Source: Ginglymostoma cirratum (taxonomy: Eukaryota). Taken from it: a stretch of DNA of 64,000 nucleotides. Position numbers and translations under genes: made by a program. How positions within the stretch are numbered: position 1 is the first letter of the stretch; every line of letters begins with the position of its first letter. Under the pieces are notes generated by a model that made no database searches, was not told the DNA's origin, and saw only the letters and a program-made list of their open reading frames with translations. Shown piece by piece: positions 27,850 through 61,599 of the stretch. Location of the stretch: positions 3,721,463-3,785,462 of the forward strand of contig JAHRHZ010000085.1 in the NCBI GenBank assembly GCA_024137785.1, in the 5' to 3' direction.

Positions 27850-29470
27850 GGGAAAAACTGATATCATCTTCAGCAATCTGACCGTCGCAGATACAACTGA
27901 CCATCACTGTATCTGTACGAATGACCACTGACTGTCCTTGCGAAAATGAATTCAAGTCTTTGCAGTGAGCATCCACACCATCGTGTTGTTTGGCACTACA
28001 ATCGTGTTAAATGGGGCAGATTTGGAACAGTTAGAATAACTCAAGACCCAGCATCACTGAGGTGCTCTGGGCCATCAACAGGAACAGAATTGTACTCAAA
28101 CCAATCTGCAAAGCATGTCACATCAATTTCACCACTCTATCATTACCATCAAACGGGTGATCAATCCTAGTTTCAAAGAACAGTGCAGCAGGAAATGCCA
28201 AGAGGAGCACCAGGAACACCAGAACATGTGGTAAAAACATGGCAAACTTGAAAAACAGAGTTAATTGCATTCCAAACAGCACAAACGACAATTAGTAGAA
28301 AGGACTCAGGGTTGCCAAAACAAATGCATCACATCAAAGCTCTGCAATCCTGTCACATCCAGTCTAGAATGATGGTTGACATCAAATAAGTCATTGGAGC
28401 AGGAAGCTCCAGGAATACCCCCACCCGCAATTAATGGATGCTCGGTAGATCAGTGCAGAAAAAAAGGCTTAGATATTTACAAAATCTTCAGCCAGAAGAG
28501 CCAAGTCGATGATCCAGCTTGGTCTCCTCGTTTGGTCACCAGCATCACCAATGGCAATCACAAATACCACCCGACGTGATGTTAAGATACATTTGGAGGG
28601 ACTGGATATTACAAAGGCTATGGTGGTTGATACTATTCCGGCAATAGCATTGAAGAGTTGTGTTCCAGAGCTTGTCGCAACCCTTGCCAAATTGATCTAA
28701 GATAATTGCAACACTGGTATCTACGTGAAAATTTGAAAAAGAACCTGGGGTATGCCCATGTGTGGAAAAAGTATGACAAATCCATTTTGTTCCAAATGCC
28801 ATTCCATCAGTCAGCTGTCCAACATCAACAAAATGATTGGATGTGTCATCTCCAATGCTATCAAGTAGCACTTGCTCAGCAATAACCTGCTCAATGACGC
28901 CCACTTAAGGCTCCGCCAGAGCCATTCAGCTCCTAATCGCATTACAGCATTCGTTTCAAACACAGAAAGAAGAACTGAACTTCGGAGCGGAGGTAAAAGT
29001 GACTACTCTCCGGAATAGGTCAGTACTGGCCCAGTGTAAAGAGTCCCAGCAAAATTAGAGCCAATGGAAATCAGGTGAAAACTTTCCTCTCATTGAAGTC
29101 TTCCCTCGCACATAGAAAGATCGTGAAGATTATTGGGAGTCAGTCATCTCTGCATTCCACCATCTTGATATCGGAATAGTGAAGATCGCTGATACTTGTC
29201 CAAAGTTCAGCTCCACGGACCACTTCCCAGATATTGAATCGGTCCATGTCAAAATGTAACAAAACATGAATGGTATCCAGTCTTAGACTAACATGTGGAA
29301 AGTAGCAAACACGCCAATCAACTGACAGAAAATGACCATTTCCAATAAGACAGAACCTAACAACTGGCCTTTGGAATACAATGCATTACCATCGCCGTGT
29401 CCCTTCAATAGCTTTCTGAAGGTAATTGTTAAACTCAATGTGAAACGGACAGTTTTAAAAAATCCTTCAT
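27850..29470 (+). mobile_element. Decayed LINE fragment (paralogous copy at ~48300-49680)
   Basis: LEGLDITKAM...IPAIALKSCVPELVATLAKL; same family as 36683-39967. Confidence 0.75.
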
Positions 29471-32012: not shown

Positions 32013-32067
32013 ATGTCTGTGCTCCATGTGCTGTGCTATCTCGCGGTCCTGTGAATAACTAATGCAG
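32013..32067 (+). pseudogene. Gene C: leader exon with in-frame stop
   Basis: MSVLHVLCYLAVL*ITNA g|gtctat; TGA at 32052-32054 where gene D has GGA. Confidence 0.78.
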
Positions 32068-32260
32068 GTCTATAAATATTTACAACCATTTGGCGAATTG
32101 GAAGATGAATGGAAATAACAGGAACTCGAAAGAGGCCACTTCGTTTTCATGATTAATTATTGGGTTTTTTTTCGTTATGTTTCTTACCCATTATTTCACC
32201 CCTTTTTATATTTCAGACCACGAAACTTAAACAACTAATTTTTGTGTATGTTTCTGACAG

Positions 32261-32581
32261 GTACTGACGAAACCCCTCTCTCTGTGACTCAAATCCCCGC
32301 ACACCTGACTGCACTGGAAGGTACAAGTGTATCCATGTATTGCTCCATCCCGCTTTTCGGTCTCAAAATATTTGTGAATGTGCGCTGGTGGAGAGACGGA
32401 CAGGGCGTAACTTTGGATCCAACAGAAGATCAAAGGAAAATAATGTTACCCTTCAAGCAAGTAGTTTCTGTGTTCCATCTGTTGAATGTGAGCTTCTGGG
32501 ACTCCGGAATCTATTACTGCAACGTCAGCGTCTTGGGCAGGAAGACTTCTAATGGAAATGGAACTCACCTTATTGTACACG
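32261..32581 (+). pseudogene. Gene C: intact VJ-type Ig V exon (NKp30/SIRP-like) of a disabled gene
   Basis: AG/GT bounded, 321 nt, phase 1/1. SVTQIPAHLTALEGTSVSMYC...WWRDG...DSGIYYCNVSVLGRKTSNGNGTHLIVH. Confidence 0.92.
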
Positions 32582-35500: not shown

Positions 35501-35710
35501 ATACAAAGGAAAGGGCGGGTATACAAGCATACGCTGATTCTGAGTTTCAGGATGGGAACTTTATTTGTTAGCAATGATAGGATGATAAAAACAAATGGAA
35601 TTTCCTCTAAAATTCAAAAAGTGCGAATGCCCTTTTACACGCGGTTTAATCCTCTCTCCATCCCACACACTTGTTCCGTTATTGACTCATTGAATGTTAT
35701 TGTGTTTCAG

Positions 35711-35992
35711 TGCTGCCAACACCGCTGACGATAACCCGCCTGCACTCGTCCTTCCTCGCTCTCCTCTGCACAACAGCTGGCTTCTTCCCGGGGAGGTTTG
35801 AACTCGTGTAGTATAAGGATTACTCCGAAATCACGTCCGGCATCAACATTAGGAAAATCTTGAACAATCAGGGTTTATTTCAAGTTTCCAGCGAGCTCAG
35901 TCTTCCTGAGAGTGGATCAATCTATACCTGCCAGGTTTCTCATATGGCACTCAACGTCCCGGCAAATGTCAGCTGCACGGTTCCGAACCGCG
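35711..35992 (+). pseudogene. Gene C: Ig C1-set exon with nonsense codon
   Basis: AG/GT bounded, 282 nt. LALLCTTAGFFPGRFELV*YKD...YTCQVSHMAL; TGG->TAG at 35809-35811. Absent from the ORF track. Confidence 0.9.
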
Positions 35993-36682
35993 GTAAGGCT
36001 CGTGAGTTTTCAGTATTGACTTAACCAGTGTGTTTGTTACATACAGGAACCTAACATGGGATTTCTGCCCGCACTAATCCTCAACATTGAAAATACAAGG
36101 GTCTGATCCATTCTCGCAAAATTGGCACTGCAGCCAAAGTTAAAATTAACGCCTATAATTTGCAATGTTACTACGCAGTCAGCTCAAAATTTACCACAAA
36201 CAGCAACCGATCTGCATTGCATCCGCACCATACCCAGTTCCCTTGTCTGACACACGGTTTCATCCACAAAACTGCTTGTAATCATTCCTTTCTCTATCGC
36301 TCGCGCTCTCTTTCTCGTTCGTTCTCCCTGTCACTACGTTTTCGCTGCTACATTCACCTCTTCCCAATCCCCGTTTCTCAAAAATTCCAGTCATTCCATC
36401 TCAATGACCCCTTGGTTTCAGTAGAGATCTTCTTCCCCTCTGTGTATTCACCTCCTTCACGACCCGACATTTCTTTATCTCTGCCTCTAATCAGTCCAAT
36501 ATCTGCCCCCGTCCAATGTGAACTGCTTTACTGTAGCACATATCAGTCTCCAATCACCGTCCAGTTACTTCCTGTGGACTCCATGGTTACTGTTTCGGTC
36601 CGTTCCTCCGTTGGTATGGTTCCTCGTTTCTGGTTTAAGGCAGTGGTTTCAGTTCTCTTCCTAGTCGAGTGCCCGATGGACT

Positions 36683-39969: not shown

Positions 39970-40250
39970 CCTGACACAGCCACGCAGAGCTCAGGCAGTA
40001 CTGTACAGTTGAAGGTGCTGTCTTTCGGATGAAAATTATGCCTAAACTAATAGTTCCTTCACGTGCACGCAAGCGATCCGGGTCGCCACTTTGCAGAAGG
40101 ATAATTAAGTCCTGAGTGAATATTTTACCTTCCAATCCATACCGCAACGTCAAATGGTCTGATCACTGTCACATTGGTCTTTCGAGAACAGGGTTTACAA
40201 TAGATGCCACATTTCCTATATTACGGCAGCGACACTATTTCAAAAATAGA
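39970..40250 (+). mobile_element. DeuSINE-like remnant (related segments at ~14860-15160 and ~55170-55430)
   Basis: GGTGCTGTCTTTCGGATGA...GATCACTGTCACATTG...CACATTTCCTATATTAC, recognised by eye as Deu-domain-like. Confidence 0.5.
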
Positions 40251-40339
40251 GATTGGCAATATATGCTGCCTTGACCACCAACACCCACATCCCATGAAAC
40301 AATATTGAAATACGATGCACTCCTCCAATCTTCGGACAC

Positions 40340-42517: not shown

Positions 42518-42611
42518 ATAATCAAAACCGTACTTTGTCCTATGCCTTAGCGCTTGGTTGTGCAGCACGTGCTAATTCTTGTCAAGCAGTGCAAATTAGA
42601 CAGAACTACTG
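42518..42611 (+). pseudogene. Gene C: uncharged TM exon with frameshifting deletion
   Basis: Polypyrimidine + CAG acceptor, GTGAGA donor. DNQNRTLSYALALGCAA^VLILVKQCKLDRTT; 94 nt, not a multiple of 3. Confidence 0.72.
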
Positions 42612-42886
42612 GTGAGACACGATTCTAAACTGGGTTTTCATCACGCGTTACAGTTCACTGGTGCAGCAGGATGGGGTTTGGGAGGGGTAAAGTGAAATTG
42701 CGCAGGCACGAATGAAATTTTCGGGACCCGTCTGTATAACATATATCCTATCTCATACCCATGTAGAGCACAATTTTAATGCACGGCGAGTCTGCTCACT
42801 TTGCTTCAATGGTGGGTAATTCCTCATGGACATGTAGTACATGGTGAAAATGATCATGGGTGTAATGTCGTTTCGTTCTCTGACAG

Positions 42887-42930
42887 GCAGCGCGGTTGCT
42901 GAGGGCATGAATAGCCAATTTGAGGAACAG
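42887..42930 (+). pseudogene. Gene C: short cytoplasmic exon
   Basis: tctgacag|GSAVAEGMNSQFEEQ|gtcagt; phase 1 to 0, matching both neighbouring exons. Confidence 0.72.
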
Positions 42931-43657
42931 GTCAGTTTATATTTGTCATAATGAGAACTAAACTGGGATTGGAGTAGACGCATACGCGTAACTTATATCC
43001 ATATTCCAGTAGCCACTGACGTGCTCCTTCGACAGCAAAACACGGCAAGCATGTGAGTTCATTATGTCCCCAGTGCACTCTTCTAATATGAATTCGTCAC
43101 AATGATCCATTGGGACAATGATATCCGAACACAGACAGGCCCCCAGCTCCCTGAGACGCAGTTTTGGATGTTTACGTTTTTTCAGTGTCAGTTGGCCTGC
43201 TCTTCAGCCACTATTAGAGGCGCAGCTCGATTTTTGATTACCCGATATTCCCATCCACATATTTCTGAGTGTTGACTGAGTCTGCCCTGAGGGAGACTCA
43301 GGCCTGCTGCTGGCTTTAGACTCCAAGCAAAAACAGGGATAATCTGAAACAAGCAAAGTCAGAAAGTAAAGCAGCTATTCAGCAATGCAAGTGCCAGGTC
43401 GAGTGCATTCGGCTGGAATAATTTCTGTGTACTTGCGTTGTGAATGAGTAGTCCAATGAACGGGTGGGAATCAGTGCTGCTGTCCTTGATACCGGGTATC
43501 ACTTCGCCGTTATTTACAGCTCTAATCTGCACAAACTGATCAAACCCAATCTGTTCAGAGATAGTAGGAACTGCCGATGCTGGAGAATCTGTTCTGTTAT
43601 TCAACATTTTTTTTCCAACTTGGCACATAGTTAGTATTTCTGCGAAACTTTCCACAG

Positions 43658-43780
43658 ATCAAACAGGACAGAGAGACAGCGAGTCCGATTTACGCTGCTC
43701 TCAACTTCAGCGGCGACAGGAAAGCGAGGAAACCGCTAATGGAGGAACAGAGCGTTGTCAATGCATACGTACTGTTGTGA
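43658..43780 (+). pseudogene. Gene C: terminal cytoplasmic exon
   Basis: ttccacag|IKQDRETASPIYAALNFSGDRKARKPLMEEQSVVNAYVLL*; homologous to 17058-17176. Confidence 0.75.
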
Positions 43781-44292
43781 AAATGAACTGTCTGTTCCAA
43801 CCGAGCCCTCTCTGACGCAGATCTGATCACAGCAATGTACACCGACAACCTGAATGATTTTACTAAACTGAGTAACAAGACCGACTCATATTTCATTGTT
43901 TTTTACGCAGACTAGGCACCGGACAGATGGTGAACTCACTTATGCGTCTTTGAATCTCACCATTCCTGAGAAAACCGGAAAAAGAAAACAGAGGAACGAG
44001 CAGGCGGAGTACGCGGAGGTCAAGATAAACAAGGACAGCGGAAACTCTCGGATTCCATGAACTCCAACAATGTTCAGTGATACTACAGTTACATCGGGGT
44101 TGCATTTTTTTTTTGGTTTATTTACGTACCACAATAAACCGTATATGTGGGTTGATTGTGAACTATATCGTAACAGAGAGTAGACTCGAGCTGCTGAACC
44201 TTTGCTTATCTTTCGATTCTCTCTATTCCTGTGAAGCAATTGAATAAATGCATTATTGTCATTGTTGTTAAATGTGAGTAAAAAAACTTTTG

Positions 44293-45111
44293 AATCATAG
44301 AAGCTTTACAGCATGGAAGGAGGCCATTTGGCTCATCGAGTCCACACTGGCCCTCCTTCGTGCATCACTCCCAGACCCATCCTATCCCTGTAACCCTGCA
44401 TTTCTCATGGCCAATCCACCTAAACTGCACATATTTGAACCGGGAGGAAACTGGAGCACCCGGTGGAAATCAATGGAGACACGGATAGGAAAAGTAAGAT
44501 GGTGGTAGAGGAAGACCCTCCAGTCGGAGCTCCTCTGCTCGCCAGTTCCTTTTCCTTATTTTTCACCACCAACCGCAGCACCCACCCCCACCCCCTCCTC
44601 CCCACAATACCTGCAGGATACATAAAAGTTGAAGGGAGACGAGATGCGGCCACAGCCCGGGTGGGAGCAGAGCGCGTGTCCTGTCCCGGAACAGGAGCAG
44701 ACCTAGTCATGGATGGTGGCCAGACAGTGGAAGCACAGTGGCCTCGTGTTCTGAAGCCAGAAGGGCAATGCCTCCTGTTAGAAAGCAAAATCACATGAGT
44801 ACTTTATAGACACTTTCTATTCTCATTCTGGACTTTTAAACTGTGCATTCCCGTGCTATTTTTAAAATCTATTTCAATTTTGTGACAACACTTAAACAAT
44901 CTGTGCCTAGTCACCCTAAACCTAAGATGGCACTGAGAGTCGGCATTACAAACTTTTCACTGCACTCATTCAAATGTACATGACAATAAAGGATATTCCA
45001 TTTTATTCTAATGTGCAAATTCCACGCAGACAGTAGCCTGAGAGTGGAATCAAACCCGGGTTCCTGGCGCTGTGAGGCAGCAGTGCTAAGCACCGAGGAA
45101 CCGTGCTCCCC
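44293..45111 (-). mobile_element. HE1-like SINE split by a ~520-bp plus-strand insert (~44491-45010)
   Basis: SINE head at 45010-45111 and body/tail at 44293-44490 join seamlessly once the insert is removed. Confidence 0.72.
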
Positions 45112-46444
45112 CGTGTTTAATCAAATGGTAGTCTATCAGACTACTTACTTGGATCACTTACATCACCTAGTGTAAGTTAGGTGGGTAACTTAATGTCCAC
45201 AGCAGGAACTCAAAAGGTCTAGGCCGCACGTTATATTCGAGACGAATTTCCTCCATCTTACCCTACTTCACAAAGTCCAATGCAATAGCCTTCCACTAAT
45301 TTCTACCTCCTGAAATTGTCCAGTTTGCTGTTAATTCCATTATCAAGTCCATCCATTCCTTGCGATGGTGAAGAACACATTCTAAGTATTCCCCGGGCGT
45401 TGTCCTTCCTCCGAACATATTTTCTTTTCTTTAAATTAGAGAATCTTTTGTTTCTAACTTCTAATTCCTAACAACTCATAAGTGCAAAAACCTCCTTCAT
45501 ACCCATTCTGTTAATATATTGTACAGACGTAAAGCATCTATTATAAAGAATAATAGGAGGGCGCCATTCATCCTGATCTTTGACGTTAATTACCTCATCC
45601 TCCGTATAACCCGTGGACCCCTTAAAGCCCAAGCATGTATGCATATCTGTCTTGAATAGACAAAACAACATCACACTCATGGGGCACTTTTCAAAATAAC
45701 CAGATGTGTCAGACGATTTTCAAACAAAGATACTTGGCAGGTTGGTCTATGTTGTATTACAGGAGTAAATTCCATGCTGAACTACACACATTCCACTCAG
45801 GTCGAGGAGTCCAAAGATCTGCAACACTTTAGAGAAGAAACTTCGCCTCATCTCGATCCTGAGTGAACAGTCCCATTTTGAGATGAAGTGCTATCCTCCT
45901 TAGCCAAAGGCAACAACTTCCAAAATCAGCTCCACTACGATCATGAAGTGATTCTTTTTACATCTTCCAATGAGTTGGATTCTGGTAAAATTGATTTCAT
46001 AGAGTTGTGGACTAAATCCTGCTCCATGCAATAATACTCTACAGCCACAATTGAATCTAAGGAGCATTTGTTTTATAATCTTCAGAACAAGGAAATCCTT
46101 TAGTAAAGCAATCAAAATTGTACCTAATTCATTGAGTGTTATCTTACTGTATAAAATCTCTTGAGGTGTGATTTCTTGTCTAATCAAAGCTGACATGATC
46201 GGATGTCTTGATAACTTACTGTACGGGAATAATCATATGTTGTGGTTCCTCCTTAAGCTTCACAAATGATCATGAAGCAAATTTTCCCAGATCTTCAGCC
46301 TTAACTAAATTTCCGTGATCTTTAAACACGTCAAAAGATATAACTTCATACTTCACTAACTGTGCTCCGTTTATTCCGAGTTTCCCTAATCACTCGACCT
46401 GTATCTTGTTTGAAAACATTGATTTATTACCAGTGGTCACGTAG

Positions 46445-47230
46445 AGCCATAGAGTCATGGAGCCGTGCAGCATGGAAACAGACCCTTCTTCCAACTGGTC
46501 CATGTCGACTAGATATCCTAAATTAATCTAGTCCTATTTGCCAGCAATTGAGCCATTTCCCTCTAAATTGTTCCTCTTTTTATATCCATCCAGATGCCTT
46601 TTAAACATTGTTATTGTACCAGCCTCCACCATTTCCTCTGGCAGCACATTCCACACATGAACCACACTCAACGTGCTCCTTAGGCCCCTTTTAAATCCTT
46701 CCTCTCTCAGCTTAAACCTATGCCCTCCAGTTTTGGGCTCCCCCACCCTGGGGAAAAGACCTTGGCTATTCACCCTATCCATGTCCCTCATGATTTTATA
46801 AACCTCTATAAGGTCACCTCTCAACCTCCGACACTCCAAGGAAAATAGCCACAGCCTATTCACCCTCTCCTGATAGCTGGAAAGTCCAACTCTGGCAAGA
46901 TCCATGTAAACCTTTTCTGAACCCTTTCAAGTTTCACAACACCCTTCTTATAGCAGGATGACCAGAAATGAACGCAGTATTGCAAAAAGTGGCCTAACCA
47001 ATGTCCACATGACCTCCCAACCCATATACTCAATGCACTGACCAATAAAGGTCCGCATATCAACCGCATTCTTCGTACCCTGTCTACCAGCAACTCCACT
47101 TTGAAAGAACTGTGAACCTGTTCTCCAAGGTCAGTTTGTTCAGCAAAACGCCCCAGGACTTTACCATTAAGTGTCCAAGTTCTGCCATGATTTGCTTTCA
47201 AAAATGCAGGACCTCACATTTTTCTAATCT
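46445..47230 (-). mobile_element. CR1 LINE 3' fragment
   Basis: YCVHFWSSCYKKGVVKLERVQKRFT; RRLRGDLIEVYKIMRDMDRV. Confidence 0.88.
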
Positions 47231-47922
47231 ACGGGTTGTAAATTGCTGTTTCATGGCACAAATCCCTGTCACGGTGGACTGATAAAAGCCAGACCCTCCC
47301 AATCTATAAAATTAAAATGAATCTTCTTTCCAATTTCTATCTGATAACCAACATTCAATCCTTGGTAATATTTTACGTCAAATCTCATAAGTCAAATTAT
47401 TTCTAAGAACCTTTCCCGCCAATCCTTACCGAATTCTTTTTTTGTTTATAAATGTTACCTCCCATCTATCCCTTGTATTGTCAAGAAACGTCGAGGGATT
47501 GCCAACTTTAATTTTTGACTTAACAATCGCCTTTGACTCTGCTTAATCGCATTATGTTTTTCCAAACGCCCAGTTAAAATAACCTCAGAATGCTCAGATG
47601 GTGGAAACCTAAAATAAAATCGGAAACTGCTGAAGAAATGCAAAGAGTCTAGTCGTCTCTCTAATGAAGTCGGATGCTGAGTGGCAAAATTGGATGAAGG
47701 AGAGTAGACTGATGAGGCAGTACTTGGAATAAGTGGTTTTATCATACCTCTTGCGCACATGGGCATACTCAGACTCTTTTCTGCATTTTTGCACTGATGC
47801 TTGTGTTGTGCCAGGGGTGTGGTAAGATCTGAAGCACAGATATCAGGGCGCGGAGTTTTTGTAGCCTTCAGTCTCTCCAAATGATTCTTGAATACACGTG
47901 AAGTGAATTGGACTGACTAAAG

Positions 47923-48055
47923 CATTTCTGATGAAGGGTCGAGGCCCGAAACGTCAAGCTTTCCTGCTCCTATGATGCTGCTTGGCCTGCTGTGTTCATC
48001 CAGCTCCACACCTTGTTATCTCGGATTCTCCATCATCTGCAGTACCTGTTATCTC
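47923..48055 (+). mobile_element. Solo PLE pseudo-LTR with intact hammerhead motif (47928-47955)
   Basis: CTGATGAAGGGTCGAGGCCCGAAACGTC; imperfect flanking repeat TGGACTGACTAAAG / TGGATTGACTGAAG. Confidence 0.78.
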
Positions 48056-51000
48056 TGGATTGACTGAAGACTGGTTTTTGTCATTCTGACGATCATTGGA
48101 GGAGATCAAAATAAAGCATACACTCAGCTCTTCTGGCTGAAGCTTGTTGCAAATATCTAAGCTTTTTCTTTCACATCGATTATGGTTTTGTTGACATGGC
48201 TGCAGAATATACTATGGCTGAGGAACTTCAGTATCCGTCAATAAAAATGATAGCAGCACAACTACTCTCCAGGCAGGTCGAATAATACAGGTATTGGGTG
48301 ATTGACTAGGTTTGTCGCAAGTGTTCAAAGGAATGATGAAGAGGCAAAACTTGATCTCAGACACAGCAATCTGCACATGAAAGATACAACTGTCCATTAT
48401 AATTTCGGTAGGAGTGACCATTGTACTGTTGTTGAGAATATGAAGTCATGTCTTCACAGTGAGCATCTACACCATAGTGTTGTGTGTCATTGCTATGGTG
48501 TTAAATGGTGTAGATTTGTAATAGGTCTAACAAATCAAGGCTTACTATCTACGAGGTGCTATGCGTCATCAACAGCAACATAATTGTACTCAAAGCAATC
48601 TGCAGGTCGTCGCCCAGAGCATTGACCACAATCATTTACCATCAAGCCAAGGGAAAAACAGATCAGGACAAAATGCTGGGAACAGTGCCGAGGATACCTA
48701 AAAATGTGATAACAATATGACAAAGCTACACAACAGGGCTACCTGCCTGTCAGACAGCATAAACCAATTAGTGGAGAGGACTAAGATTTTCCAAAACAAG
48801 TGCATCAAATCTAACACCTGCAATTCTATCACATTCAGTCTTGAAAAATGGTTGCAATTAAATAAATCAATAGAGTGGGGAGGTCCACAAATACCACCAT
48901 CCTCAATGAATTGGAAGCCCAGCAGATCAGTTCAAACATAAATACCTGGATATTTACAACAATCTTCTGCCATAAGAGCTCAAAGAATGATTCGATTTGG
49001 TCTCCTCCAGTGGTCCCTCGATTCAGCCAATCCAATTTACTTCACATGATATCAAGAAAAGTTTGGAGGGGCTAGATGCTGCAAAGATGACGGGCCCTGA
49101 CAACGTTCAGGAAATACCATTGATGACTTATTCACCAGGAAATGCCGCATCCCATCAAGACAGTCCTTCAAACATAGACAGTAGATTTGAACTCTAGAGA
49201 TGAGGGGAGAGAGGTTGCTCTTGAAAATGAGGCAGCACTTGACCCAATGTAAGGAGATTGGCAAACTTTGTGTCAACAGGAATTGGGGGAATTCGCCGCT
49301 CATTAGAGTCTTTTGTAGCACAACGAAAGAATTTAGAGCTCACTGGAAGCCAGGCATTTCTGCCTTCCTGGATCCTGATGTCAGGAACGTGGATATTTGT
49401 TGATCGTTGGACAATGTTCAGCGCCACTGATGACTTCTCGGACACTGAAGCAGTCCATGTCTAAATACAACAAGGTATGGACGTTCTCCAGTTGTGGACT
49501 GACAATTGGCAAGTAACAGGCACACCACTCACTTGACCGAAAATGACCACTTCCAATAAGACAGAATTTATCAATCATTCTTTCAAATTTAATCAATTAC
49601 CATCGCTGAATTCCCCACTAAAGCGTACTGAGTATCATCGTTGACATCAACCTGAAATGGCTAAAACAGCAAAGAATCTCCTTAAAACAAAACGTAGAAG
49701 CAGAGTTAGTTTTAGAGGGTAGCTTGTCACAATGTGCGACCGAAATTTGCTCCATCACCTTCCAGTCCTGGCATGGTGCCAGCATCACTGCACATGGCAG
49801 AGAAGGTTGCATCTCTCCCCGTTCCTGACCTGATCCTCTTCAGTCTGTCATCATCCAGAAATGCACCTTAGCACACTGTATGACCAATAACAAGATTGTG
49901 ACAGCAAAGACATTGGTAATATGGATCTGACACAATTGTTCATTACATTCCTGAAGTGATGCTTTTAGCCTATTTAATTTTGTAATAGCTTCCCAGCATA
50001 TCGCTAACCCCATTTCAGTGTTGTAACGGTCCACTCATCCATACGGGAATCCGTCTCTATGATTAGCGGAAAAAGGTTAGCCCCATCATCCTGTACGTGT
50101 TACATTGATCCACAAAGTAAAGATTCTTGATGTCGACCTGATCACCTTGGATTCCAGGCATGGGTCACCCAGGACCGTACATTCCTGAGATGGCAACATC
50201 AATCCGCCCTGATCCATCACCCAAGATTCCTTGCAGGAATCACAATCATTCCTTTTCATTCTTTAATCATACAGTTCGTGAAGGAATGAATAAATAAATG
50301 TCTGAGTGAACTTGAATTACAGTCTATAATTGGAAGTGTTTTCTGGGACTAGTAATTATGCCTGCGGCATTCGTTCTGGTAAGAAGTTGGTTCAATTTAC
50401 ATCACGACTAAAAGTGACACTGAAGTCAAATACGTATTTGAAATAGAAAGGCTGATGATATTCAAATGACTGTTGATTGTCGGAAATAAAATAAAAATTC
50501 TTGTTCACTGATGTCCTCTGAGAAAGCAATTCTGACATTCGGCTTTCTCCTGATGTGTCTTCAATTCCAAAATCCAATCTGCGTTTGTCATTGGTTTATC
50601 CCCCACCTTTACCTCACCACCACTACCCCATACAGCCTTTTCAAACTCATTTTGTCGATCTGTTTTCCGCTCTGTGAAACCTGATAACCATAAGTCACTC
50701 ATTACTCAATTTCCATTCCTGCGGCCATTTTGGGTTACATTGTGTCCTCCTCACTGCCCTCTGCACCCAAACACAGCTCCGTCCCATAACTTTCAAAACT
50801 TCTTCCAAACTTCTCAATGACTCTTCTGTATATAGAAATAACTCCGAGCACGAATAGCTTGTCAATGATTATTAAATTCTTCTTGAATTTCCAAATCTGT
50901 GAAAGCTTTAGCCGCAATCCTGCGCTGAAATCTTATTAATCAAGTTTCCGCCTCTCCCATAGGACTAAAATTACGAAAGAAATTCACACGTTATGGTGAC

Positions 51001-51685
51001 CAGCGAATCCCTTCCATTCAAGCACCCATCAGCCCCTTGGGACTTTCTCAGAGAAGAACACCACAGCTTTTTTCCCCACCTATCCTCCCGTGCGCAGCTG
51101 AAATCGATAGGCCCTACCCATTTTCCTCCACCTTATTAGTCGTTGTATCAAATTCTCCTGAACTGGTTTCTTTTACTGCACACTCAGAGCTCTACAGATC
51201 CATGAACTCACCCAACCGTTGGCCATTGACCACTCATTTCTCCCCATTTTACCTCAACAAAGTCATTCAATGACATGGCATCGAATTCCAGTGTACCAAC
51301 AAAACACTCATTTCTACCTCATCACCAGCTCTGTCAAAGTCCACACTGCTATTGATCCAGATCCCCTTCGCGCTCCCAACTCCCGCACAACTGCCACAGG
51401 TCGGACAACACCGAAATCCATCAGCACCGTCAGAACCACAAACCTATCAGGTCACGAAAAAAAAGTCTCATCATATCTTGGTCACCACCAGACCTGACGC
51501 AATGTAATTTTGCAACACCGAGGCCCATCGATCCGCCTTAAACAGGACCAATTCATTGAAGATGCCTCGGACACCAAGTGGTGTGTCTCAACGTAGCAGG
51601 AGGTCTCAGATAGTCATTAGATTTTACCATCAAATTTAAGTGGATCTCGGTATCTCCTTGTCCGAGAATATCGTCCCAGCGCAGA

Positions 51686-51740
51686 ATGCCTGTGCTCCAT
51701 GCGCTGTGGTACCTCTCTTCCCTGGGATGTATTTGTGCAG
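51686..51740 (+). pseudogene. Gene D: intact leader exon
   Basis: MPVLHALWYLSSLGCICA g|gtcagt; phase 1; 195-nt intron to the V exon. Confidence 0.8.
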
Positions 51741-51935
51741 GTCAGTAAATACATACACCCATCTGTCGAACAGGAAAATGAATGGAAATACCGCGAATTT
51801 CATGAACGCCGCTTCCTGATCATTATTAGTTGTTATTGATTTTCTTTCATTAATTTTCTAACTCATCATTTTGCCCATTTTTATTTGACTGATCATGAAG
51901 AGCTTTCAACCAATGATTGTGCATGTTTCTGACAG

Positions 51936-52256
51936 ATACTGAGAAAACCTCGTTGCCTGTGACTCGAGTCCCTGCATGTCTGACTGCGCAGCAAGGTAAA
52001 AATGTGTCCATGTATTTTTCCATCCCACTTTTCAATCGTGATATATCCGTGAATGTTTCCTGGCGGAGAGACGGGCAGAACAATGCTTTGAATCCCACAG
52101 AAGACAAAAGGAAAATAATCTTGCCGTTGAAACTTGCATCTATTGAGTTCCATCTGCCGAAAGTGAACCTCCGGGACTCCGGAATCTATTACTGTCGCAC
52201 CAGCGTCTCAGGCTGGAAGACTTCAAATGTGAATGGGACTAAGCTTATTGCATACG
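51936..52256 (+). pseudogene. Gene D: open VJ-type V exon lacking the B-strand Cys
   Basis: 321 nt, AG/GT bounded. NVSMYFSIP (TTT 52016-52018)...WRRDG...DSGIYYC...SNVNGTKLIAY. Confidence 0.9.
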
Positions 52257-54661
52257 GTGAGTGTCGGGGGAATGGGGAAGATTAAGTAAGGCAGGTGTAC
52301 ATCCGAAAACGGACAAGAAGAGCAGCAAGGAGTCTTCTCACAGGTGGGAGCCTTGAAATGCATTTCTTCTGCTCTAAGTTCACGGAAAACTAATCTCAAC
52401 ATATGTACCCCAGATTTTCCGTCTGTGCTCGATCAATGCTTGTTAGGCTGTATGACCTGTTTAAACCTGTTTTACATCGAGTAGTTATGATCGGGCAACA
52501 TATCTCCGATAATGCTTCATTTGATTTAGACAGCTGTCGCGAATTGAAGTGCATTACATTTGCCGTGGAAAGTCATCCTTCAATCATCCAACCACCAAAA
52601 ATCTACTCCCAACTCCATGTTGGCAGACAATCCAGAGACGAATCGTTATTTTAAAGGTGTGTTTCCATCTACGGTTCTCAAAAACGGTGATCAAATCCAT
52701 GCAAGCAATTAGAAATGGAAACGGCTTCAGGAGGTGAAAAGCAGACCCTAAAGCGAGAGCAAATAATTAATTCGCCAAAAAGTGCAACGTGTTTCAGGAA
52801 AACATTCCAAAGCACGCTGCCTAAGCGTGAATTATTTAATGTTGTTTCAGAACTGTTGGGTTTCCATCATTTGATTCCTGGGAATTTTTAGGTGCTGACT
52901 CAACATTCAACTGATGAACAATGGGTGTTATTTATACTGCTTCTAGTTTAAACTTATAACGAAAAGTGCATTTACACTGCTTTTAGATATTTTTCAAGGA
53001 TGTAAGTATTTACTGTATCTCGATTAAATTTACAGCGAAGCATTTGTTTCCGCTCCTCCCCAATTTTACTGACAACTTTCGATAATTATGTACACCTCTC
53101 ATCGATGCAGTCTCGCTTCGAGCTCTGATTCCAAAAAGTGAGCGAAGTTTTCTGAGCATTTTACTCCTTTAATTTAGTGCAGCCAATCTTCGCGCTAGAA
53201 GTAGCCTGAGGGAAGTATTTTTGAACACTGCAGTTTTTAATGGATAATAGATAAATCCTGGAGGCACATGTTCAAGGAATTCAGCCAATGGCATTGCTCC
53301 TGGAGCTTTGTCTGATGATCATCGTTGGGAACATTTATAGATGAAGACTGTTTGCAACTGTAGCCAGGTATTATCAGGAAAAATAAAATCTGTTACTTGT
53401 CCTCTTATTTCTCATAAAAATAAACTAACATCCTAGCGGTTGCCCAGGCACTGAACTGGACCAACCAGATACATGCAGTGCCTACAAGTGCAGGTCAGAA
53501 ACTAAGACCACTCCAGTGAGTGTCTCAACTCCTTAGTCCCCAGAATCTATCCAGCATTTACAAGTGATAAATGGAGAGTGCCATGGGATTAATAATCGAC
53601 TGCAGAAGCTGGCGATCTGAAACAAAAAGAGAAATAGCTGGAGAAACTCAGCAGGTGCGGCGCATTCAGTGGAACAAAACAGAGTTAATGTTTCAAGTAC
53701 TGTGACTCTTCATCAACACGGATGATGATGAGGACTCTCTGGACTCGAAACATTAACTCTGCTTTCTTCTCACAGATGCTGCCAAACCTGCTGAGTTTGT
53801 CCATCCGTTTCTAGGTATTCTTTTTCCTTTCTTGTATTTAGGGTCCTGATTCTATTCGGTAAACTTAACCGATGTGAATAGAGATTGGATTGATCTCAAA
53901 TGCAAAATTATCTTCGAACACAGCGTTAAAAGTCATTTCTTAAATTTCAAGCTCAATCATAGAAACAGGAAAGAAACTCGAAAGGAAATGAAAGAGGAAT
54001 TGGATTAATCTTGCTTCCACGATACTGTGAAACTGATGACAGTAACTGGATAATCCTTTCATCATCTTTCTCGAATGATCATTCATTCCAAACAACATAG
54101 GAAAAAGAGAACAGTTTTGGATTTGAGATTGAGGCTTTTGATGGAGCGATGTTATAATTCAATGCCCCATTGACTGTGGATTGAGGCGGTCTGGTGCACC
54201 CAATGAATAATTAATAGACTGTGCATTAAGTGTGCTTGATTCAACCAGTGATTGAGAATATCTGATGGGATCAGCAATTGTTCAGTCGGGACTCTGGTTG
54301 AGTGTGTCTCATGGGACCAGAGTTAATCCCATGCAGACTCTGAGTTGGTTGCGTCGGATATGTGCCTCTTACAACGTAATTTTAGCTGCCTCTATTGACG
54401 TGGTTTTGTCCCCTCAATTTATCCATTTATCTCCAACCTTTACCCAAACACAAAGGAAGGGGCAGTTTAACAGGCATAGATGATTCTAAGTTTCAATATT
54501 GGAACTTTATTTGTTAACATTAATAGGGTTAACACTAATTTTATAAGAGGATTCCCTCCAAAATACAAAAAGTGCCTATTCCTTTAGAATGGTTCTTCAA
54601 TCCTCTCTCCATCCCACACCCTAGTTCCGTTATTGACTCATTGAATGTTACTGTGTTTCAG

Positions 54662-54944
54662 TGCCGCCAACACCGCTGAAGATAACCCGCCTGCCCTCAC
54701 CCTTCCTCGCTCTCGTCTGCACAACAGCTGCCTTTTATCCGGGGGAATTTAAACTCGTTTGGTATAAAAATTACTCCGAAATTACATCCGGGATAAGCAT
54801 CACAAAAACGTCGAACGCTCAGGGTTTATTTCAAGTTCCCAGCGAGATCAGTCTTCCAGAGTGTGGGGTCAGTCTATACCTGCCAGGTTTCTCATATATC
54901 GCTCAGCGTCCCAGCAAATGTCAGCTACAAGGTTCCGAACCACA
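54662..54944 (+). pseudogene. Gene D: Ig C1-set exon with +1 frameshift
   Basis: LALVCTTAAFYPGEFKLVWYKN... 283 nt versus 282 in gene C. Removing one G from 54865-54868 restores SVYTCQVSHISL. Confidence 0.9.
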
Positions 54945-55807
54945 GTAAGGCTCACCAGTTTTCTGTGTTGATTTAACCAGTAATGTACAGGAACCTAACA
55001 CGGGATTTCTGTCCGCACTAATCCTCAACAGTGAAAATGCAAGGGTCTGATCCGTTCTCGCATACTTGGCACTGCAACCGAAGTTAAACTTAATGCCTAT
55101 GTGCTGAAGTATTGCTAATCGTCAGCTCAAAAATTTCCACAAGTTGCATTGCTTCCGCGCCATGCCCAGGGACTAGAGGATCCCTCGTGTGACGAGCGGT
55201 TTCCTCCCTAATGATAATAAGTCAGTCCTGAGCAAATATTTATCCTGTTAATCCACATCACAGAATCAGATGATGTGATCACTATCACATTGTTTTGTGG
55301 GGAAGCGCATACAAAATGGTTACCACATTTCCTACAATATAACGACGTGTACACTTCAAGTTGTTCCTTAGCTTTAAAGCGCTTTAAAGCGACCTGAACA
55401 GCGCTGTGTAATGCCCGCTTTCTCTTTTCCGTTAACTGGGTATTGTTAACATTAAGCACTCCATTTGAAATTAACCCAAGGACTAGAATTAGCTTTAGCT
55501 TCCCCTTAGCAGTGTCAGGCACTAAACCAATAAAAATGCAAGGGTTGAACATTCGCGGGGATCTCTGATATCCTCATGTTTAGTGCTATCTCCGCGAAAC
55601 CCGTGGAGAAAAGACTTGAACATTTTTTTAATTCTACCGCTCAGGTGCATTGAAGTAAACCCTGAGGCACGCAGTCCTGCGCCCAACACATTGATTGTCT
55701 CCAGTTCCCTCTCAAGTTGTTCTCCCTCCCTATATGTAAATTTTTGTTTCGAGTTGTTTCTCTGCCGTTCCTCATTAGGTCTCTGCGACTCTGTAACTAT
55801 CCTTCAG

Positions 55808-55899
55808 CTGACAGTTTCCACACCATTAACGTCGTCCGTTTGTTTTTGGGGGTCGTGGTGACGATATCGGGGACCGCCTTCACCGGAGATCATTTAAAG
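55808..55899 (+). pseudogene. Gene D: candidate activating-type TM exon (NxxR)
   Basis: ccttcag|(T)DSFHTINVVRLFLGVVVTISGTAFTGDHLK|gtaaga; phase-1 start matches the C1 donor. Confidence 0.65.
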
Positions 55900-57419
55900 G
55901 TAAGATGGTCATTTGTTGCTTCCATCATTGCCAGGAGATTAAAGGAATCGAAAAACATGCAGGAAACAAATACATCATCCCTTATTTGTGATATTCGTGT
56001 CTGGATGGATAAATGCGCTAGACATTAACTCGTCATTCTTTGTTTCCTTATCAACTGAGTACACACTGTAAAAAAAATGAATCCTATCACTGAACGCTAA
56101 GGTGTCGTTCAGTGTTAACATCCACCTCACACTCACTGTTACCTAGCCAGAAGTCACACGATTATAGTCCAATAGGCTTATTTGATGTCACAAGCTTTTC
56201 CGGCGCTGGGCCTTCGACAGCTGAATCCTGTCCAGGTGAATTGCAGCGCTCCGAAAATTTGTGATTTCAAGTAAACCTGCTGGTCTGTAATCTGGTGTCG
56301 TGTCATTTCTGTCCTTGTTCTCCCCACCCCCCACCCCCCAAACCAGACACGTTCATCTCGCATTCTTGTCTCACACATGCAGCACTCACTCACATTATCA
56401 TCATTCAGAAAGTGTCGTTATCGCAATCATTTTGCACTCGTTATTCAGTGTGCATGAATCTCACTTACCCAGCAGATATATGTTAATTAGTGTCGTGTTT
56501 AACAAGCGTCTCTCTTTCTGCCATTCGCCCAACCACTGTTCACTCACGTGCACCCTAATCTTTCATTGCCTGTATCTCACACAGGGATCTGTCACCCACT
56601 ATGTCTCACGTTGCCACCTCTCTCCGTAAACTGAATAAATAGTTCAGATGTTGGAGTTCTGAGAAAGAGTCACTGGACCCGAAACTTTAACTCTGATTTT
56701 TCTCTGCAGATGCTGCCAGACCTGCTGAGCTATCTCAGCAATTTCTTGCTTCTGATTAGCAACAACAGCAGTTGTAAATAGTTCAGATGTACCGTGCATC
56801 ACAAAGTCAAATCTCACATCCAGTTACCCCTTCAGAAAATCGGTCTCGGCCCGAAACGTCAGCCTTCCGGCTTCTCTGATGCTCTGCTTGGCCTGCTGTG
56901 TTCATCCAGCTCTACACCTTGTTGTCTCAGATTCTCCAGCATCTGCAGTTCCTACTATCTCTCTCACACAACGTTCAACTTGTGCAATGATCGGAACTGG
57001 TTCACAGTCCAACGACAGTTTCATTTGGAATTCAGCTAAATGAAACTGGTACTTGAGCATCACATCTTATCAACAATTTGCATTCTGACAAGTTGAAATT
57101 ACCCAGATTTTGGTTTCGAGTTTCGGGCATATTATTCATCTAAACAGACATAATAGTAAATATGGAGATAACACAGAATTTTGTCTGAGCCGGTTTGGTC
57201 CATTCCTCTTTACAGAGGCTTAAATTCATAACTTGACAATTCATCATCAATTATGAACGCACGGGCTGAAAGGAAAATGTTGCACTGTTAGAACCGACCT
57301 CCACAGCTGAAGGGGTAAAGGAGATAAAAGGTACTGCAGATGCTGGAGAATCCGAGATAACAAGCATGGGGCTGGATGAACACAGCAGGTCAAGCAGCAT
57401 CATAGGAGCAGGAAAACTC

Positions 57420-57447: not shown

Positions 57448-57736
57448 AAATGGGGGAGGGGAAGAGGGTTCTGAAATAAATAGGGAGAGAGGGGGAGGCG
57501 GATAGAAGATGGATAGAGGAGAGGATAGGTGGAGAGGAGGCAGACAAGTCGAAGAGGCGGGGATGGAGCCAGTAAAGGTGAGTGTAGGTAGGGGGGTAGG
57601 GAGGAGATAGGTCAGTCCAGGGAGGACGGACAGGTCAAGGGGGCGGGATGATGTTAGGAGATAGGAGATGGGGGTGTGGCTTGGGGTGAGAGGAAAAACC
57701 GGTTAGGGAGGTGGAGATGAGCTGGGCTGGTTTTGG

Positions 57737-60241
57737 GATGTCACATCCGCCACCGCCGGGCACCCCACTTCCGGGACAGCGAACGCCTCCGCTGCTGAAA
57801 TCACCGCCTCCATCACCGAAACCAACACCGTCATCGCTGCTGCCGCCGCCGACGCCGCTCCGCCCACCGCCGAAGCCGACACAACACCCGCCGCAGACGT
57901 AACTCCGCCCACAGCCGACGCAGACGTAACCCCGCCCACAGCCGACGCAGACGTACCTCCGCCCACAGCCTCCGGAGGAGACAGCAGCACTGAGCCCTGC
58001 CGAGTCTTCACCATCCCCCCAGACCTCCCCCTCACTGAGGACGAACGGTCAGTCCTCAGTAAAGGGCTCACCTTTGTCCCCCTCCTCTCACATATCAATG
58101 AATACCGCTCACGCTTGGACATTGAGCAGTTTTTCCGCCGCCTGCGCCTACACGCTGACTTTTCCAACCGCGAAACGAACCCTCCCTCTACTGACCCCTT
58201 CTCCCGCCTCCAACACAAGCCCTCCTCCTGGACACCACCCCAAGGCCTCCTACCCTCCCTCGACCTCTTCATCGCCAACTGCCGTCGAGACATCAATCGC
58301 CTCAACCTCTCTACCCCTCTCAAACACTCCAACCTCTCCCCCGCAGAACGTGCAGCCCTCCACTCCCTCCGCTCCAATCCCAACCTCACCATAAAACCCG
58401 CGGACAAGGGAGGCGCAGTCGTAGTATGGCGCACTGACCTCTACATTGCTGAGGCCAGGCGCCAACTCTCTGACGCCTCTTCCTACCGCCCCCTGGATCA
58501 TGACCCCACCCCTGAGCACCAAACCATCATTTCCCAAACCATGCACAACTTCATCACCTCAGGTGACCTCCCACCCACCGCCTCCAACCTCATCGTTCCC
58601 CAACCCCGCACCGCCCGCTTCTATCTCTTCCCCAAAATCCACAACCCTGAATGCCCTGGTCGACCAATTGTCTCCGCCTGCTCCTGCCCCACCGAACTCA
58701 TCTCCACCTACCGAGACTCAATTTTCACCCCCTTGGTCCAGGAACTCCCTACCTACGTCCGTGATACCACCCACGCCCTCCACCTCCTCCAGAAGTTCCA
58801 ATTCCCAGGTCCCCAACACCTCATTTTTACTATGGACGTCCAGTCCCTATATACCTGTATTCCCCATGCTGATGGCCTAAAGGCCCTCCGCTTCTTCCTG
58901 TCCCGCAGAACAGACCAATCCCCCTCCACCGACACCCTCATCCGCCTAGCCGAACTCGTCCTCACCCTCAACAACTTTTCTTTCAATTCCTCCCACTTCC
59001 TACAGACAAAGGGGGTGGCCATGGGTACCCACATGGGCCCAAGCTATGCCTGCCTCTTTGTAGGTTATGTGGAACAATCCCTCTTCCAGACCTACACTGG
59101 CCCTAAACCACACCTCTTCCTCCGTTACATTGATGACTGCATCGGCGCCGCCTGGTCCTCCCACGAGGAGCTCGAACAGTTCATCCAATTCACCAACACT
59201 TTCCACCCCAACCTGAAGTTCACCTGGACCATCTCCAACACTTCTCTCTCCTTCCTGGACCTCTCTGTCTCCATCTCGGGCAACCACCTAGAGACAGATG
59301 TCCATTTCAAGCCCACTGACTCCCACAGCTACCTGGAATACACCTCCTCCCACCCACCCTCCTGCAAAAATGCCATCCCCTATTCCCAATTCCTTCGCCT
59401 CCGCCGCATCTGCTCCCAGGATGAGACATTCCAATCCCGCACATCTCAAATGTCCTCATTCTTCAAGGACTGCAACTTCCCCCCCACAGTGGTCGAGAAC
59501 GCCCTCGACCGTGTCTCCCGCATTTCCCGGAACACATCCCTCACGCCCCGTTCCCGCAACAATAACCAAAAAAGAATCCCCCTCGTCCTCACATACCATC
59601 CCACCAACCTCCGGATCCAACGCATCATCCTCCGACACATCCGCCATCTGCAGTCAGACCCCACCACCAAAGACATCTTTCCCTCCCCACCCTTATCTGC
59701 CTTCCGGAGGGACCACTCCCTCCGCGACTCCCTTGTCCGCTCCACACTCCCCATCAGCCCCACCACACCCGGCACTTTTCCTTGTAACCGCAGGAAGTGC
59801 TACACCTGCCCCCACACCTCCTCCCTCACCCCAATCCCAGGCCCCAAGAAGACTTTCCACATCAGGCAGAGGTTCACCTGCACATCTGCCAATGTGGTAT
59901 ACTGCATCCGCTGTACCCGTTGTGGCTTCCTCTACATCGGGGAAACCAAGCGGAGGCTTGGGGACCGCTTTGCAGAACACCTGCGCTCAGTTCGCAACAA
60001 ACAACTGCACCTCCCAGTCGCGAACCATTTCAACTCCCCCTCCCATTCCTCAGATGACATGTCCATCCTTGGCCTCCTACAATGCCACAGTGATGCCACC
60101 CGAAGGCTGCAGGAACAGCAAATCATATTCAGCCTGGGAACCCTGCAGCCCAATGGCATCAATGTGGATTTCACAAGCTTCAAAATCTCCCCTCCCCCAA
60201 CCGCATCCCAAAACCAGCCCAGCTCATCTCCACCTCCCTAA
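57737..60241 (+). CDS. PLE polyprotein: reverse transcriptase + GIY-YIG endonuclease (open frame, native start lost)
   Basis: LSKGLTFVP, KPADKG, PGRPIVS, MDVQSLYT, GVAMG, YIDD, VVYCIRC...YIGETKR...EH...HFN. No stops from the truncation junction to TAA. Confidence 0.92.
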   Translation, partial: DVTSATAGHPTSGTANASAAEITASITETNTVIAAAAADAAPPTAEADTTPAADVTPPTADADVTPPTADADVPPPTASGGDSSTEPCRVFTIPPDLPLTEDERSVLSKGLTFVPLLSHINEYRSRLDIEQFFRRLRLHADFSNRETNPPSTDPFSRLQHKPSSWTPPQGLLPSLDLFIANCRRDINRLNLSTPLKHSNLSPAERAALHSLRSNPNLTIKPADKGGAVVVWRTDLYIAEARRQLSDASSYRPLDHDPTPEHQTIISQTMHNFITSGDLPPTASNLIVPQPRTARFYLFPKIHNPECPGRPIVSACSCPTELISTYRDSIFTPLVQELPTYVRDTTHALHLLQKFQFPGPQHLIFTMDVQSLYTCIPHADGLKALRFFLSRRTDQSPSTDTLIRLAELVLTLNNFSFNSSHFLQTKGVAMGTHMGPSYACLFVGYVEQSLFQTYTGPKPHLFLRYIDDCIGAAWSSHEELEQFIQFTNTFHPNLKFTWTISNTSLSFLDLSVSISGNHLETDVHFKPTDSHSYLEYTSSHPPSCKNAIPYSQFLRLRRICSQDETFQSRTSQMSSFFKDCNFPPTVVENALDRVSRISRNTSLTPRSRNNNQKRIPLVLTYHPTNLRIQRIILRHIRHLQSDPTTKDIFPSPPLSAFRRDHSLRDSLVRSTLPISPTTPGTFPCNRRKCYTCPHTSSLTPIPGPKKTFHIRQRFTCTSANVVYCIRCTRCGFLYIGETKRRLGDRFAEHLRSVRNKQLHLPVANHFNSPSHSSDDMSILGLLQCHSDATRRLQEQQIIFSLGTLQPNGINVDFTSFKISPPPTASQNQPSSSPPP
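57893..57970 (+). repeat. 27-nt coding minisatellite (ADVTPPTAD) x ~3
   Basis: GCAGACGTAACTCCGCCCACAGCCGAC tandem units. Confidence 0.85.
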
Positions 60242-60496
60242 CCGGTTTTTCCTCTCACCCCAAGCCACACCCCCATCTCCTATCTCCTAACATCATCCCG
60301 CCCCCTTGACCTGTCCGTCCTCCCTGGACTGACCTATCTCCTCCCTACCCCCCTACCTACACTCACCTTTACTGGCTCCATCCCCGCCTCTTCGACTTGT
60401 CTGCCTCCTCTCCACCTATCCTCTCCTCTATCCATCTTCTGCCCGCCTCCCCCTCTCTCCCTATTTATTTCAGAACCCTCTTCCCCTCCCCCATTT

Positions 60497-60524
60497 CTGA
60501 TGAAGGGTTTAGGCCCGAAACGTC
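60497..60524 (+). ncRNA. Hammerhead ribozyme motif in 3' pseudo-LTR
   Basis: CTGATGAAGGGTTTAGGCCCGAAACGTC. Confidence 0.8.
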
Positions 60525-61599
60525 GAGTTTTCCTGCTCCTATGATGCTGCTTGACCTGCTGTGTTCATCCAGCCCCATGCTTGTTGCACAGCTGAAGGTT
60601 CAGTTTAAGGTTACGGCACCTAAGTCTGTTCTGATATAACTCCAAGTATTTTGCATGGTGTGCTTCATGTTTTCTACGTACCAGATTTAAACCGGAGACT
60701 TTAACTCAATAACTTCTATCCAGTACACTATCCAATGTCCCCCATTCTTTACCCCTAGTGTCATACCCTTATCCTAACACCATTCTCGGGAGACAGAAAT
60801 ATTCCTGTCTGCCGTATCATAATATCCGCAGGTTCTTTTCGAGGAAATAATATGATTTCTTCATTTATTATCCCTGTTCAAACAAATTGATCCGATGACT
60901 GTATATGTCATCCAGTCTAGTTTGTACCACATTCATCAGAAATGCCTTACGCAGCTTAGACACCACACTTTTAGTAAAGAATTTTAGTAAAGACTCTTTT
61001 AATACAGATTCTGGTAAGTGTCGTTGATGTTCTGTATTACTAATTTTTTTTTTGCCCTGGGTCTCTTTAGGCTCTCATCAATTTGTTTATCGAAAATTGA
61101 GTATTTAGCTTCCTGGTATTAATAGCCCTCCCTGACTCTGATTTATAAATAATCCTTTTCAATTGACCTTTCTTTCTGGTTTTCGTGTACTTTTGAGATC
61201 TAATTTGGGTTATCCTGTTGTCAAATTTCATTGACTTGGCATATTAATATGATTCATTGCATATTCCCTTTCTTCTCCATTCCTTGCTCCTACTTTCCTG
61301 TTCTTCGCTAAGAATTCTGTCAAATAAAGTTTCCTATCACTGTTCATTCCTTCCCGAGGTGATGGATTCAAGTTTATTTTTGACATAACCGGTGCTGTAT
61401 GAAAAGGCTGTTATGTAATGCATTTCCTGTCTGGAATATTTCTGGTCGGTTTTCTTTGCTGCACCGCTCAGTGCTGAACTCTTGTGTGGTTGCCATTTAT
61501 TGGTTTCAGATGAGCTAGGCAGGAAAGGTCAAACCACCACTGAAGAATCTTATCATTTCTAGGGAGAAAAAAGAAACTTCCTGAAATCATCTGTAAATT

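Follow-up and report, generated by a model that had tools for sequence, protein, structure and literature searches.

Transmembrane anchors that open with an Asn-x-x-Arg (NxxR) motif have been reported in mammals, birds and amphibians (PMC6557307, PMC4536121), and the words "shark" and "cartilaginous" occur in neither paper. Anchors of this kind promote association with FcR-gamma (PMC2413239, PMC6557307, PMC4536121), including in transfections with Xenopus receptors (PMC2413239), and in NKp30 and NKp46 a membrane Arg pairs with an Asp of the adaptor (PMC6514059). The locus considered here lies in a shark, Ginglymostoma cirratum, within a stretch of 64,000 nucleotides (the window; G000:C85:3721463-3785462, GenBank contig JAHRHZ010000085.1, in a genome of 4.36 Gb) that carries four tandem V-C1 immunoglobulin (Ig) genes, A, B, C and D, every one of them broken within the window. 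Genes C and D are broken copies of what was probably an inhibitory/activating receptor pair, of which the activating anchor exon would be old and the ectodomains repeatedly homogenised, and D is best read, with comparable confidence, as a decayed pseudogene that is still transcribed but spliced at shifted sites. Passages of PMC12227049 and PMC10751288 deal with VJ and VJ-C1 genes that do not rearrange (UrIg, NKp30, PRARP), and not with the C/D pair. A literature search found no published account of a shark V-C1 pair or of shark NxxR anchors, and a prior description in Kinlein 2021, Flajnik 2012, Ohta and Flajnik 2015 or Ohta 2019 is possible.

Gene D was delimited from the genomic sequence together with contigs X1-X4, which come from four RNA runs of one study and show presence, not levels. 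Its parts are given below in window positions.

51686..51740, forward strand: leader exon of D, open; joined to the V exon in X1 and X2
51936..52256, forward strand: V exon of D; TTT (Phe) at 52016-52018 replaces the B-strand Cys codon, and the X1 contig has the same
54662..54944, forward strand: C1 exon of D, 283 nt; one extra G in the run 54865-54868, and a cryptic donor after 54761
55779..55899, forward strand: anchor exon of D as spliced in RNA, from acceptor 55779 to donor 55899
55808..55899, forward strand: conserved NxxR anchor exon proper, with a phase-1 acceptor as in homologous gene models
56710..56912, forward strand: terminal exon of D, repeat-derived; used in X1, X3 and X4, adding 23 residues and a stop

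An earlier, sequence-only reading of this DNA had placed an NxxR motif where the transmembrane (TM) segment of D begins, and the motif is indeed present: the exon at 55808-55899 is bounded by AG and GT, and its phase-1 frame reads NxxR followed by a hydrophobic run. Asp-His lies 17 residues after the Arg, and an Asp, an aromatic residue and a Thr precede the Asn, though not as a contiguous DYT. DNA and protein searches found the exon to be single-copy in the genome, so it is not the repeat fragment that the same reading had named as a possible refutation. Nor is the exon a chance resemblance: when 454 kb translated in six frames were searched with a profile built from eight homologues, none of them from the window, the D exon scored E 1e-6, and the sole other match below E 0.1 is another family member.

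The NxxR exon of D also ends V-C1 proteins of other sharks, namely P0005 of Chiloscyllium plagiosum, P0088 of Hemiscyllium, and P0006/7 and P0023 of Heptranchias, and in these homologues the anchor exon is read in the frame that acceptor 55808 would give. The link between C1 and this exon is thereby found in homologous genes as well as in a transcript contig of D. Identity to the D exon is 63% for P0005 and 47% for P0006, and 23-33% for six other activating-type exons. An Arg-x16-Asp/Glu-His pattern after C1 was found in 13 of the 183 collected proteins (about eight genes, five genera), with more distant members in Heterodontus, Carcharodon, Scyliorhinus, C. punctatum and Heptranchias. The NxxR form at the N-terminus of the anchor is shared by D, P0005, P0006, P0023 and P0088; six more distant family exons are without the Asn and have Arg (five) or Gln (one) at the charged position. 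An Asp or Glu 17 residues after the Arg or Gln is present in D and in all eight other aligned exons, and is lost in P0088. The NxxR subtype was found with one ectodomain subfamily only, and its similarity tracks the relatedness of the species. Since carpet sharks and Heptranchias alike carry this anchor subtype on a single, shared ectodomain subfamily, the anchor predates D. The arginine anchor exon of D thus appears to be an old module common to other sharks, not a new acquisition, and the proposal that D arose by exon shuffling is not supported for a recent event; a shuffle may nevertheless account for how the activating gene first arose, long ago. The suggested search of the genome for further genes of this type returned a second, related one at C85:1906845-1917979 on the reverse strand (L023-L025), whose V, C1 and Arg-anchor exons are open and whose anchor is 87% identical to that of P0050. 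An activating-anchor profile had no match in the PDB at E 10, and matches in the atlas scored no higher than 0.81. Related Ig proteins of a lungfish (Protopterus, P0101), a skate (Leucoraja, P0086) and a ray (Mobula, P0046) have Arg-bearing anchors too, but with another pattern.

Gene C has the other kind of back end, and its exons are as follows.

32013..32067, forward strand: leader exon of C, with a premature TGA at 32052-32054
32261..32581, forward strand: V exon of C, open; NKp30-like VJ-type domain
35711..35992, forward strand: C1 exon of C, with TAG at 35809-35811, the position of a Trp codon in D
42518..42611, forward strand: uncharged anchor exon of C, a frameshifted 94-nt remnant
42887..42930, forward strand: short cytoplasmic exon of C, predicted, AG/GT bounded
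43658..43768, forward strand: cytoplasmic exon of C, with a YxxL motif
43911..44060, forward strand: last exon of C, with an immunoreceptor tyrosine-based inhibitory motif (ITIM; LTYASL), a second Tyr motif and the stop

The tyrosine tail ascribed to C is therefore present, canonical ITIM included, but the TM segment ascribed to it is a frameshifted remnant from which the hydrophobic core is mostly gone. With the TGA at 32052, the TAG at 35809 and the frameshifted anchor, C is a broken gene, which the earlier reading had missed. Neither C nor D combines an open frame, the canonical Ig cysteines and a full anchor.

The two genes remain recognisably parallel up to the C1-TM intron, as a comparison of the two regions confirmed.

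48339..55207, forward strand: region of D colinear with C 27847-36265, an ectodomain block including flanks and introns
40008..40339, forward strand: SINE-like (short interspersed element) repeat in the C1-TM intron of C, with copies in gene A (14919-15255) and, partly, in D
55216..55357, forward strand: 3' part of the SINE-like repeat in D, the last sequence that D has in common with A and C

Leader, V, C1 and introns are colinear as had been claimed, with 62-73% identity in the colinear blocks. The closeness ascribed to C and D amounts to 65% amino-acid identity in the ectodomain at a synonymous divergence (dS) of 0.36, near the intron divergence of 0.31-0.37; the ratio of nonsynonymous to synonymous divergence (dN/dS) is 0.59 (95% interval 0.40-0.95). 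Intron sequence next to C1 is more alike than the remainder, at 81% (275/338) versus 73% (2090/2881; Fisher p 4e-4), which fits a late conversion tract. Homology of D to C ends at 55207-55357: position 55207 (36265 in C) runs straight into the 3' part of the repeat, the 5' part being absent from D, and past the repeat D and C have only scattered repeats in common. The breakpoint previously placed near or within the repeat at about 55170-55430 was roughly right, the boundary lying between about 55357 and 55779; no evidence was found that the repeat brought about a recombination there. The 264 kb examined contain just three long copies of the repeat, one each in A, C and D, all in the same orientation and, in A and C, in the C1-TM intron. 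It looks inherited, and would mark the end of shared sequence without needing to have caused the junction. The back end of D, described as an unrelated exon, is unrelated to the anchor of C but is related to other exons of the family. A remnant of an inhibitory tail was sought in about 48 kb downstream of D and was not found (best E 0.4). A match to the P0005 tail 23 kb downstream of D (E 8e-7) was considered as synteny and rejected as a repeat with 40 scored matches.

The case for a pair comes from the homologues. Partners with uncharged anchors were found in the same species as activating-type proteins, namely P0001 in C. plagiosum (partial) and P0008 and P0009, both with Tyr tails, in Heptranchias. 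In Heptranchias, two activating and two inhibitory-type proteins have ectodomains that are 82-93% identical and fall in one clade (support 100/99), and in C. plagiosum the activating ectodomain has 88% identity to that of the partner with the uncharged anchor, whereas activating ectodomains compared between the two species are only 60-61% identical. An approximately unbiased (AU) test rejects a single clade of the five activating ectodomains among 19 rows (p 3.3e-80). In a 47-row tree, hand-picked from 108 proteins of <=560 residues with a C1 motif and omitting isoforms and most rows without an anchor, the activating label takes 14 changes, and 370 of 500 shuffles are as low, so that there is no excess clustering. 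The ectodomains thus group by lineage, not by back end. The activating-type P0023 of Heptranchias additionally retains a Tyr-less remnant of an inhibitory last exon (local score 30-53 against five tails; 0-8 of 1000 shuffles as high), from which it follows that activating genes were once built on an inhibitory chassis, and the activating type may have begun, far back, with an exchange of anchor exons. The paired signature first proposed for C and D accordingly stands as regards opposite back ends on matched ectodomains, in the homologues too; what it overlooked is that both C and D are broken. A further activating/inhibitory-type pair, P0092/P0155, is present in Heptranchias as separate gene models, P0092 having zero branch length in the ectodomain tree.

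Contigs X1-X4 are RNA because they contain spliced GT-AG joints, and they show that D is transcribed: X1 and X2 have the leader-V joint, and in X1 the C1 donor at 54944 is joined to an acceptor at 55779. Loose contig ends have the V exon (X3) and the cryptic C1 donor at 54761 (X4) also joining 55779, and donor 55899 is spliced in X1, X3 and X4 to the repeat-derived acceptor at 56710 and in X2 to an exon at C85:3787410. Two further runs, X5 and the raw-read run X6, had no coverage of C1 and speak neither for nor against these joints. The junction 54944/55808 that had been expected is not the one in use. No joint or break at 55808 was found in contigs of the four RNA runs, and with the extra G in C1 such a junction would meet a TGA immediately. 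This extra G is present and gap-free in 3/3 covering contigs (X1, X2, X3), on which ground an assembly error was rejected, for these samples, as the source of the frameshift. An intact C1 or a V exon entering at 55779 is read in another frame that stops at 55859; the frameshifted C1 and the cryptic donor at 54761 enter the NxxR frame. The 55779 acceptor, the frameshift that reopens the NxxR frame and the repeat-derived last exon are most likely products of decay, the 23 residues added by that exon being without the tyrosine signalling motifs of C. The signs of decay comprise the lost Cys, the frameshift, a weak anchor, three different donors into 55779 and the repeat-derived last exon. The hydrophobicity of the anchor, already flagged as moderate, is 1.79 (19-residue Kyte-Doolittle), and that of its core is 1.75 versus 2.71-3.42 in nine homologues, a deficit in keeping with decay. 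One X1 contig (51583-53029) reads through from the leader-V joint into intron 2 and would encode a 134-residue secreted V-only product.

A related history would have unequal crossover join an inhibitory ectodomain duplicate anew, in each shark lineage, to an activating back end that was already there. It amounts to the originally proposed shuffling, made recurrent and onto an old exon, and it overlaps the interpretation given above and differs from it in history only. It predicts the same discordance in the trees, and it is consistent with the abrupt stop of D-C homology at a shared repeat whose 5' part D is without and with the Tyr-less remnant in P0023. The repeat is, however, present in all three of A, C and D and may be merely the last shared intron sequence, and an NxxR subtype confined to one ectodomain subfamily, with similarity that follows relatedness, is simpler to explain by one persistent locus; recurrent grafting is accordingly judged possible but rather unlikely. 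Less probable again is that D still functions in a remodelled form, its frameshift and the 29-nt shift of the acceptor cancelling so that the NxxR anchor holds a V domain on a stalk without order, or that it yields a secreted V-only decoy. The 54944-55779 joint does keep the NxxR frame open, as does the cryptic donor, and the read-through contig would supply the secreted form, but the V domain of D is without its canonical Cys, its C1 loses the F and G strands, its anchor has gained polar residues, its tail is from a repeat, and V-to-55779 splicing (X3) is out of frame. A random frameshift would, moreover, reopen the frame one time in three, nonsense-mediated decay would presumably favour open RNAs, and the remodelled frame assumes a V-C1 joint that was not directly seen. 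Finally, moderate hydrophobicity and disordered splicing in D could suggest a chance cryptic exon or repeat fragment with no link to signalling, an idea refuted by an exon that is single-copy and whose frame and position are kept in other sharks, and left with hardly any probability.

Several observations nonetheless weigh against an old, homogenised pair of which D is a decayed member. Conversion inside one lasting pair and grafting that happened independently several times cannot be told apart from the trees, and at 65% identity C and D are far from identical, with weak support (86/62) for placing D with or apart from C in the carpet-shark clade. The dN/dS of C and D fits past selection and leaves its end undated, an open frame of up to 283 residues is possible in D, assuming that V joins C1, and constraint on splice elements could also account for the higher identity near C1. 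The Asn at position -3 is found in only 3/9 homologues, and the homologues are automatic NCBI gene models. The four RNA runs are of one study and may derive from the animal whose genome was sequenced.

On the interpretation of C and D as remains of an old pair, intact receptors of both types would have V-C1 ectodomains so nearly identical that they bind one ligand or two similar ones. The C type would signal off through its ITIM tyrosines, and the D type, with its short tail, would signal on through a membrane Arg paired with the Asp of an FcR-gamma or CD3-zeta dimer; intact D-type receptors are thereby inferred, by analogy, to activate via an FcR-gamma-type adaptor, and an FcR-gamma/zeta-type anchor exon with Asp is present in this genome. 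The pair would predate the split of carpet sharks and Heptranchias, and the ectodomain would be copied again and again from one partner to the other, by gene conversion or unequal crossover, in tracts that end in the C1-TM intron. In G. cirratum both genes would later have decayed, D being left as a transcribed pseudogene with shifted splicing.

As to the wider family, Pfam calls V-set and C1-set domains on the C/D-type ectodomain, and the V domain, VJ-type and encoded by a single exon, is most similar to NKp30, to which the best four of its 13 PDB matches belong (E 3e-6). With the V exon of C as query, 56 matches were found in the genome, 53 of them on contigs C84 and C85, and all named close homologues returned by the searches are from sharks and rays. 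These results point to a large shark family of NKp30-like V-C1 receptors, whose members are mislabelled in databases as tapasin, MHC, SIRP or B7-H6-like, many being "SIRP-like" at NCBI. Similar gene pairs recur at C84:52000-112000 and C85:2736000-2820000, several with stops in C1 or anchor exons, which suggests segmental duplication. Within the window, gene A (8970-17430) is a broken V-C1 paralogue with a frameshift in V, an Arg in place of the C1 Trp, a repeat inserted at its anchor exon and stops in its tail, and gene B (22320-27600) is another, with a deletion in V and a Trp in place of the first C1 Cys. Copies of a retroelement, 97% identical, lie at 57707-60530, directly downstream of D, and at 1-1065; the former has an 844-codon open frame (57707-60238) with reverse-transcriptase-like motifs and is presumably Penelope-like. 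An Rfam scan of the window returned no matches.

In cartilaginous fish the receptors of innate immunity, both activating and inhibitory, are still ill-defined. The V-C1 family, with its FcR-gamma-type anchor and ITIM partners, supplies candidate natural killer or myeloid receptors and allows one to ask directly if the NxxR module is older than the bony vertebrates. Beyond being an example of two lesions that leave a misleading open frame, the D locus is of minor importance. Compared with NKp30/NCR3, the shark family likewise has a single-exon VJ-type V domain and a membrane Arg, which in human NKp30 serves CD3-zeta/FcR-gamma (PMC6514059), but it has in addition a C1 domain and ITIM-tailed partners, human NKp30 having one Ig domain (PMC6514059). 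None of 28 MHC class I matches lies on C84 or C85, although these are contigs and do not stand for whole chromosomes, and a search for MHC class II had no match anywhere. Contig C2, which does bear MHC class I, has two V-only NKp30-like genes, at 19167121-19167447 (reverse strand) and 19255787-19256095 (forward strand; L046/L048), with uncharged candidate anchors and no C1 nearby. Kinlein et al. in 2021 reportedly distinguished eight subtypes in a shark NCR3 family.

The paired receptors described as undergoing merohomogenization (KLRC, Ly49 and PIR; PMC3210942) resemble the shark case in that the parts that bind ligand cluster within each species, the opposed back ends being retained. The shark case differs in its setting, cartilaginous fish, and in the receptors concerned, which are of V-C1 Ig type. 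Siglec-11/16 stands beside these as a paired receptor with ectodomain homogenisation. The SIRP family (V-C1-C1; SIRP-alpha inhibitory, SIRP-beta activating) likewise combines V and C1-set domains with a multi-Tyr tail, and SIRP-alpha is the third PDB match for P0008; the sharks differ in having one C1, an NKp30-like V and an Arg near the start of the anchor. SIRP-beta1 has a mid-membrane Lys and pairs with DAP12. The shark C/D family would work, by analogy, like LILR/PIR, XFL and SIRP pairs. In view of its additional C1 domain, the lack of MHC class I matches on C84 and C85 and the V-only genes on C2, it is not classed as NCR3 proper.

The closest counterpart of the anchor itself is the NxxR module of activating LILR, NKp46, GPVI, FcalphaRI, OSCAR and TARM1 and of the Xenopus XFL TM1, ILR and SLAM-like receptors, which is similarly encoded by a separate exon and starts with Asn-x-x-Arg (PMC6557307, PMC2413239, PMC4536121). 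Both anchors have an acidic C-terminal end and a short tail, and coexist with uncharged-anchor partners bearing Tyr tails. The shark anchor is distinct in sitting on a VJ-type V and a C1 domain, not on leukocyte receptor complex (LRC), FCRL or SLAM domains, and its likeness to the tetrapod module is one of motif. The N-terminal DYT consensus of the module (PMC6557307) is not reproduced exactly, and the Asn is kept only in this subtype. It may tentatively be proposed, at somewhat short of even chances, that the NxxR exon of the mammalian LRC and of Xenopus FCRL and SLAM receptors is one portable module of jawed-vertebrate age, which in sharks would serve a fourth kind of ectodomain (VJ-C1), in pairs whose ectodomains conversion has kept alike from a time before the living orders of sharks diverged.

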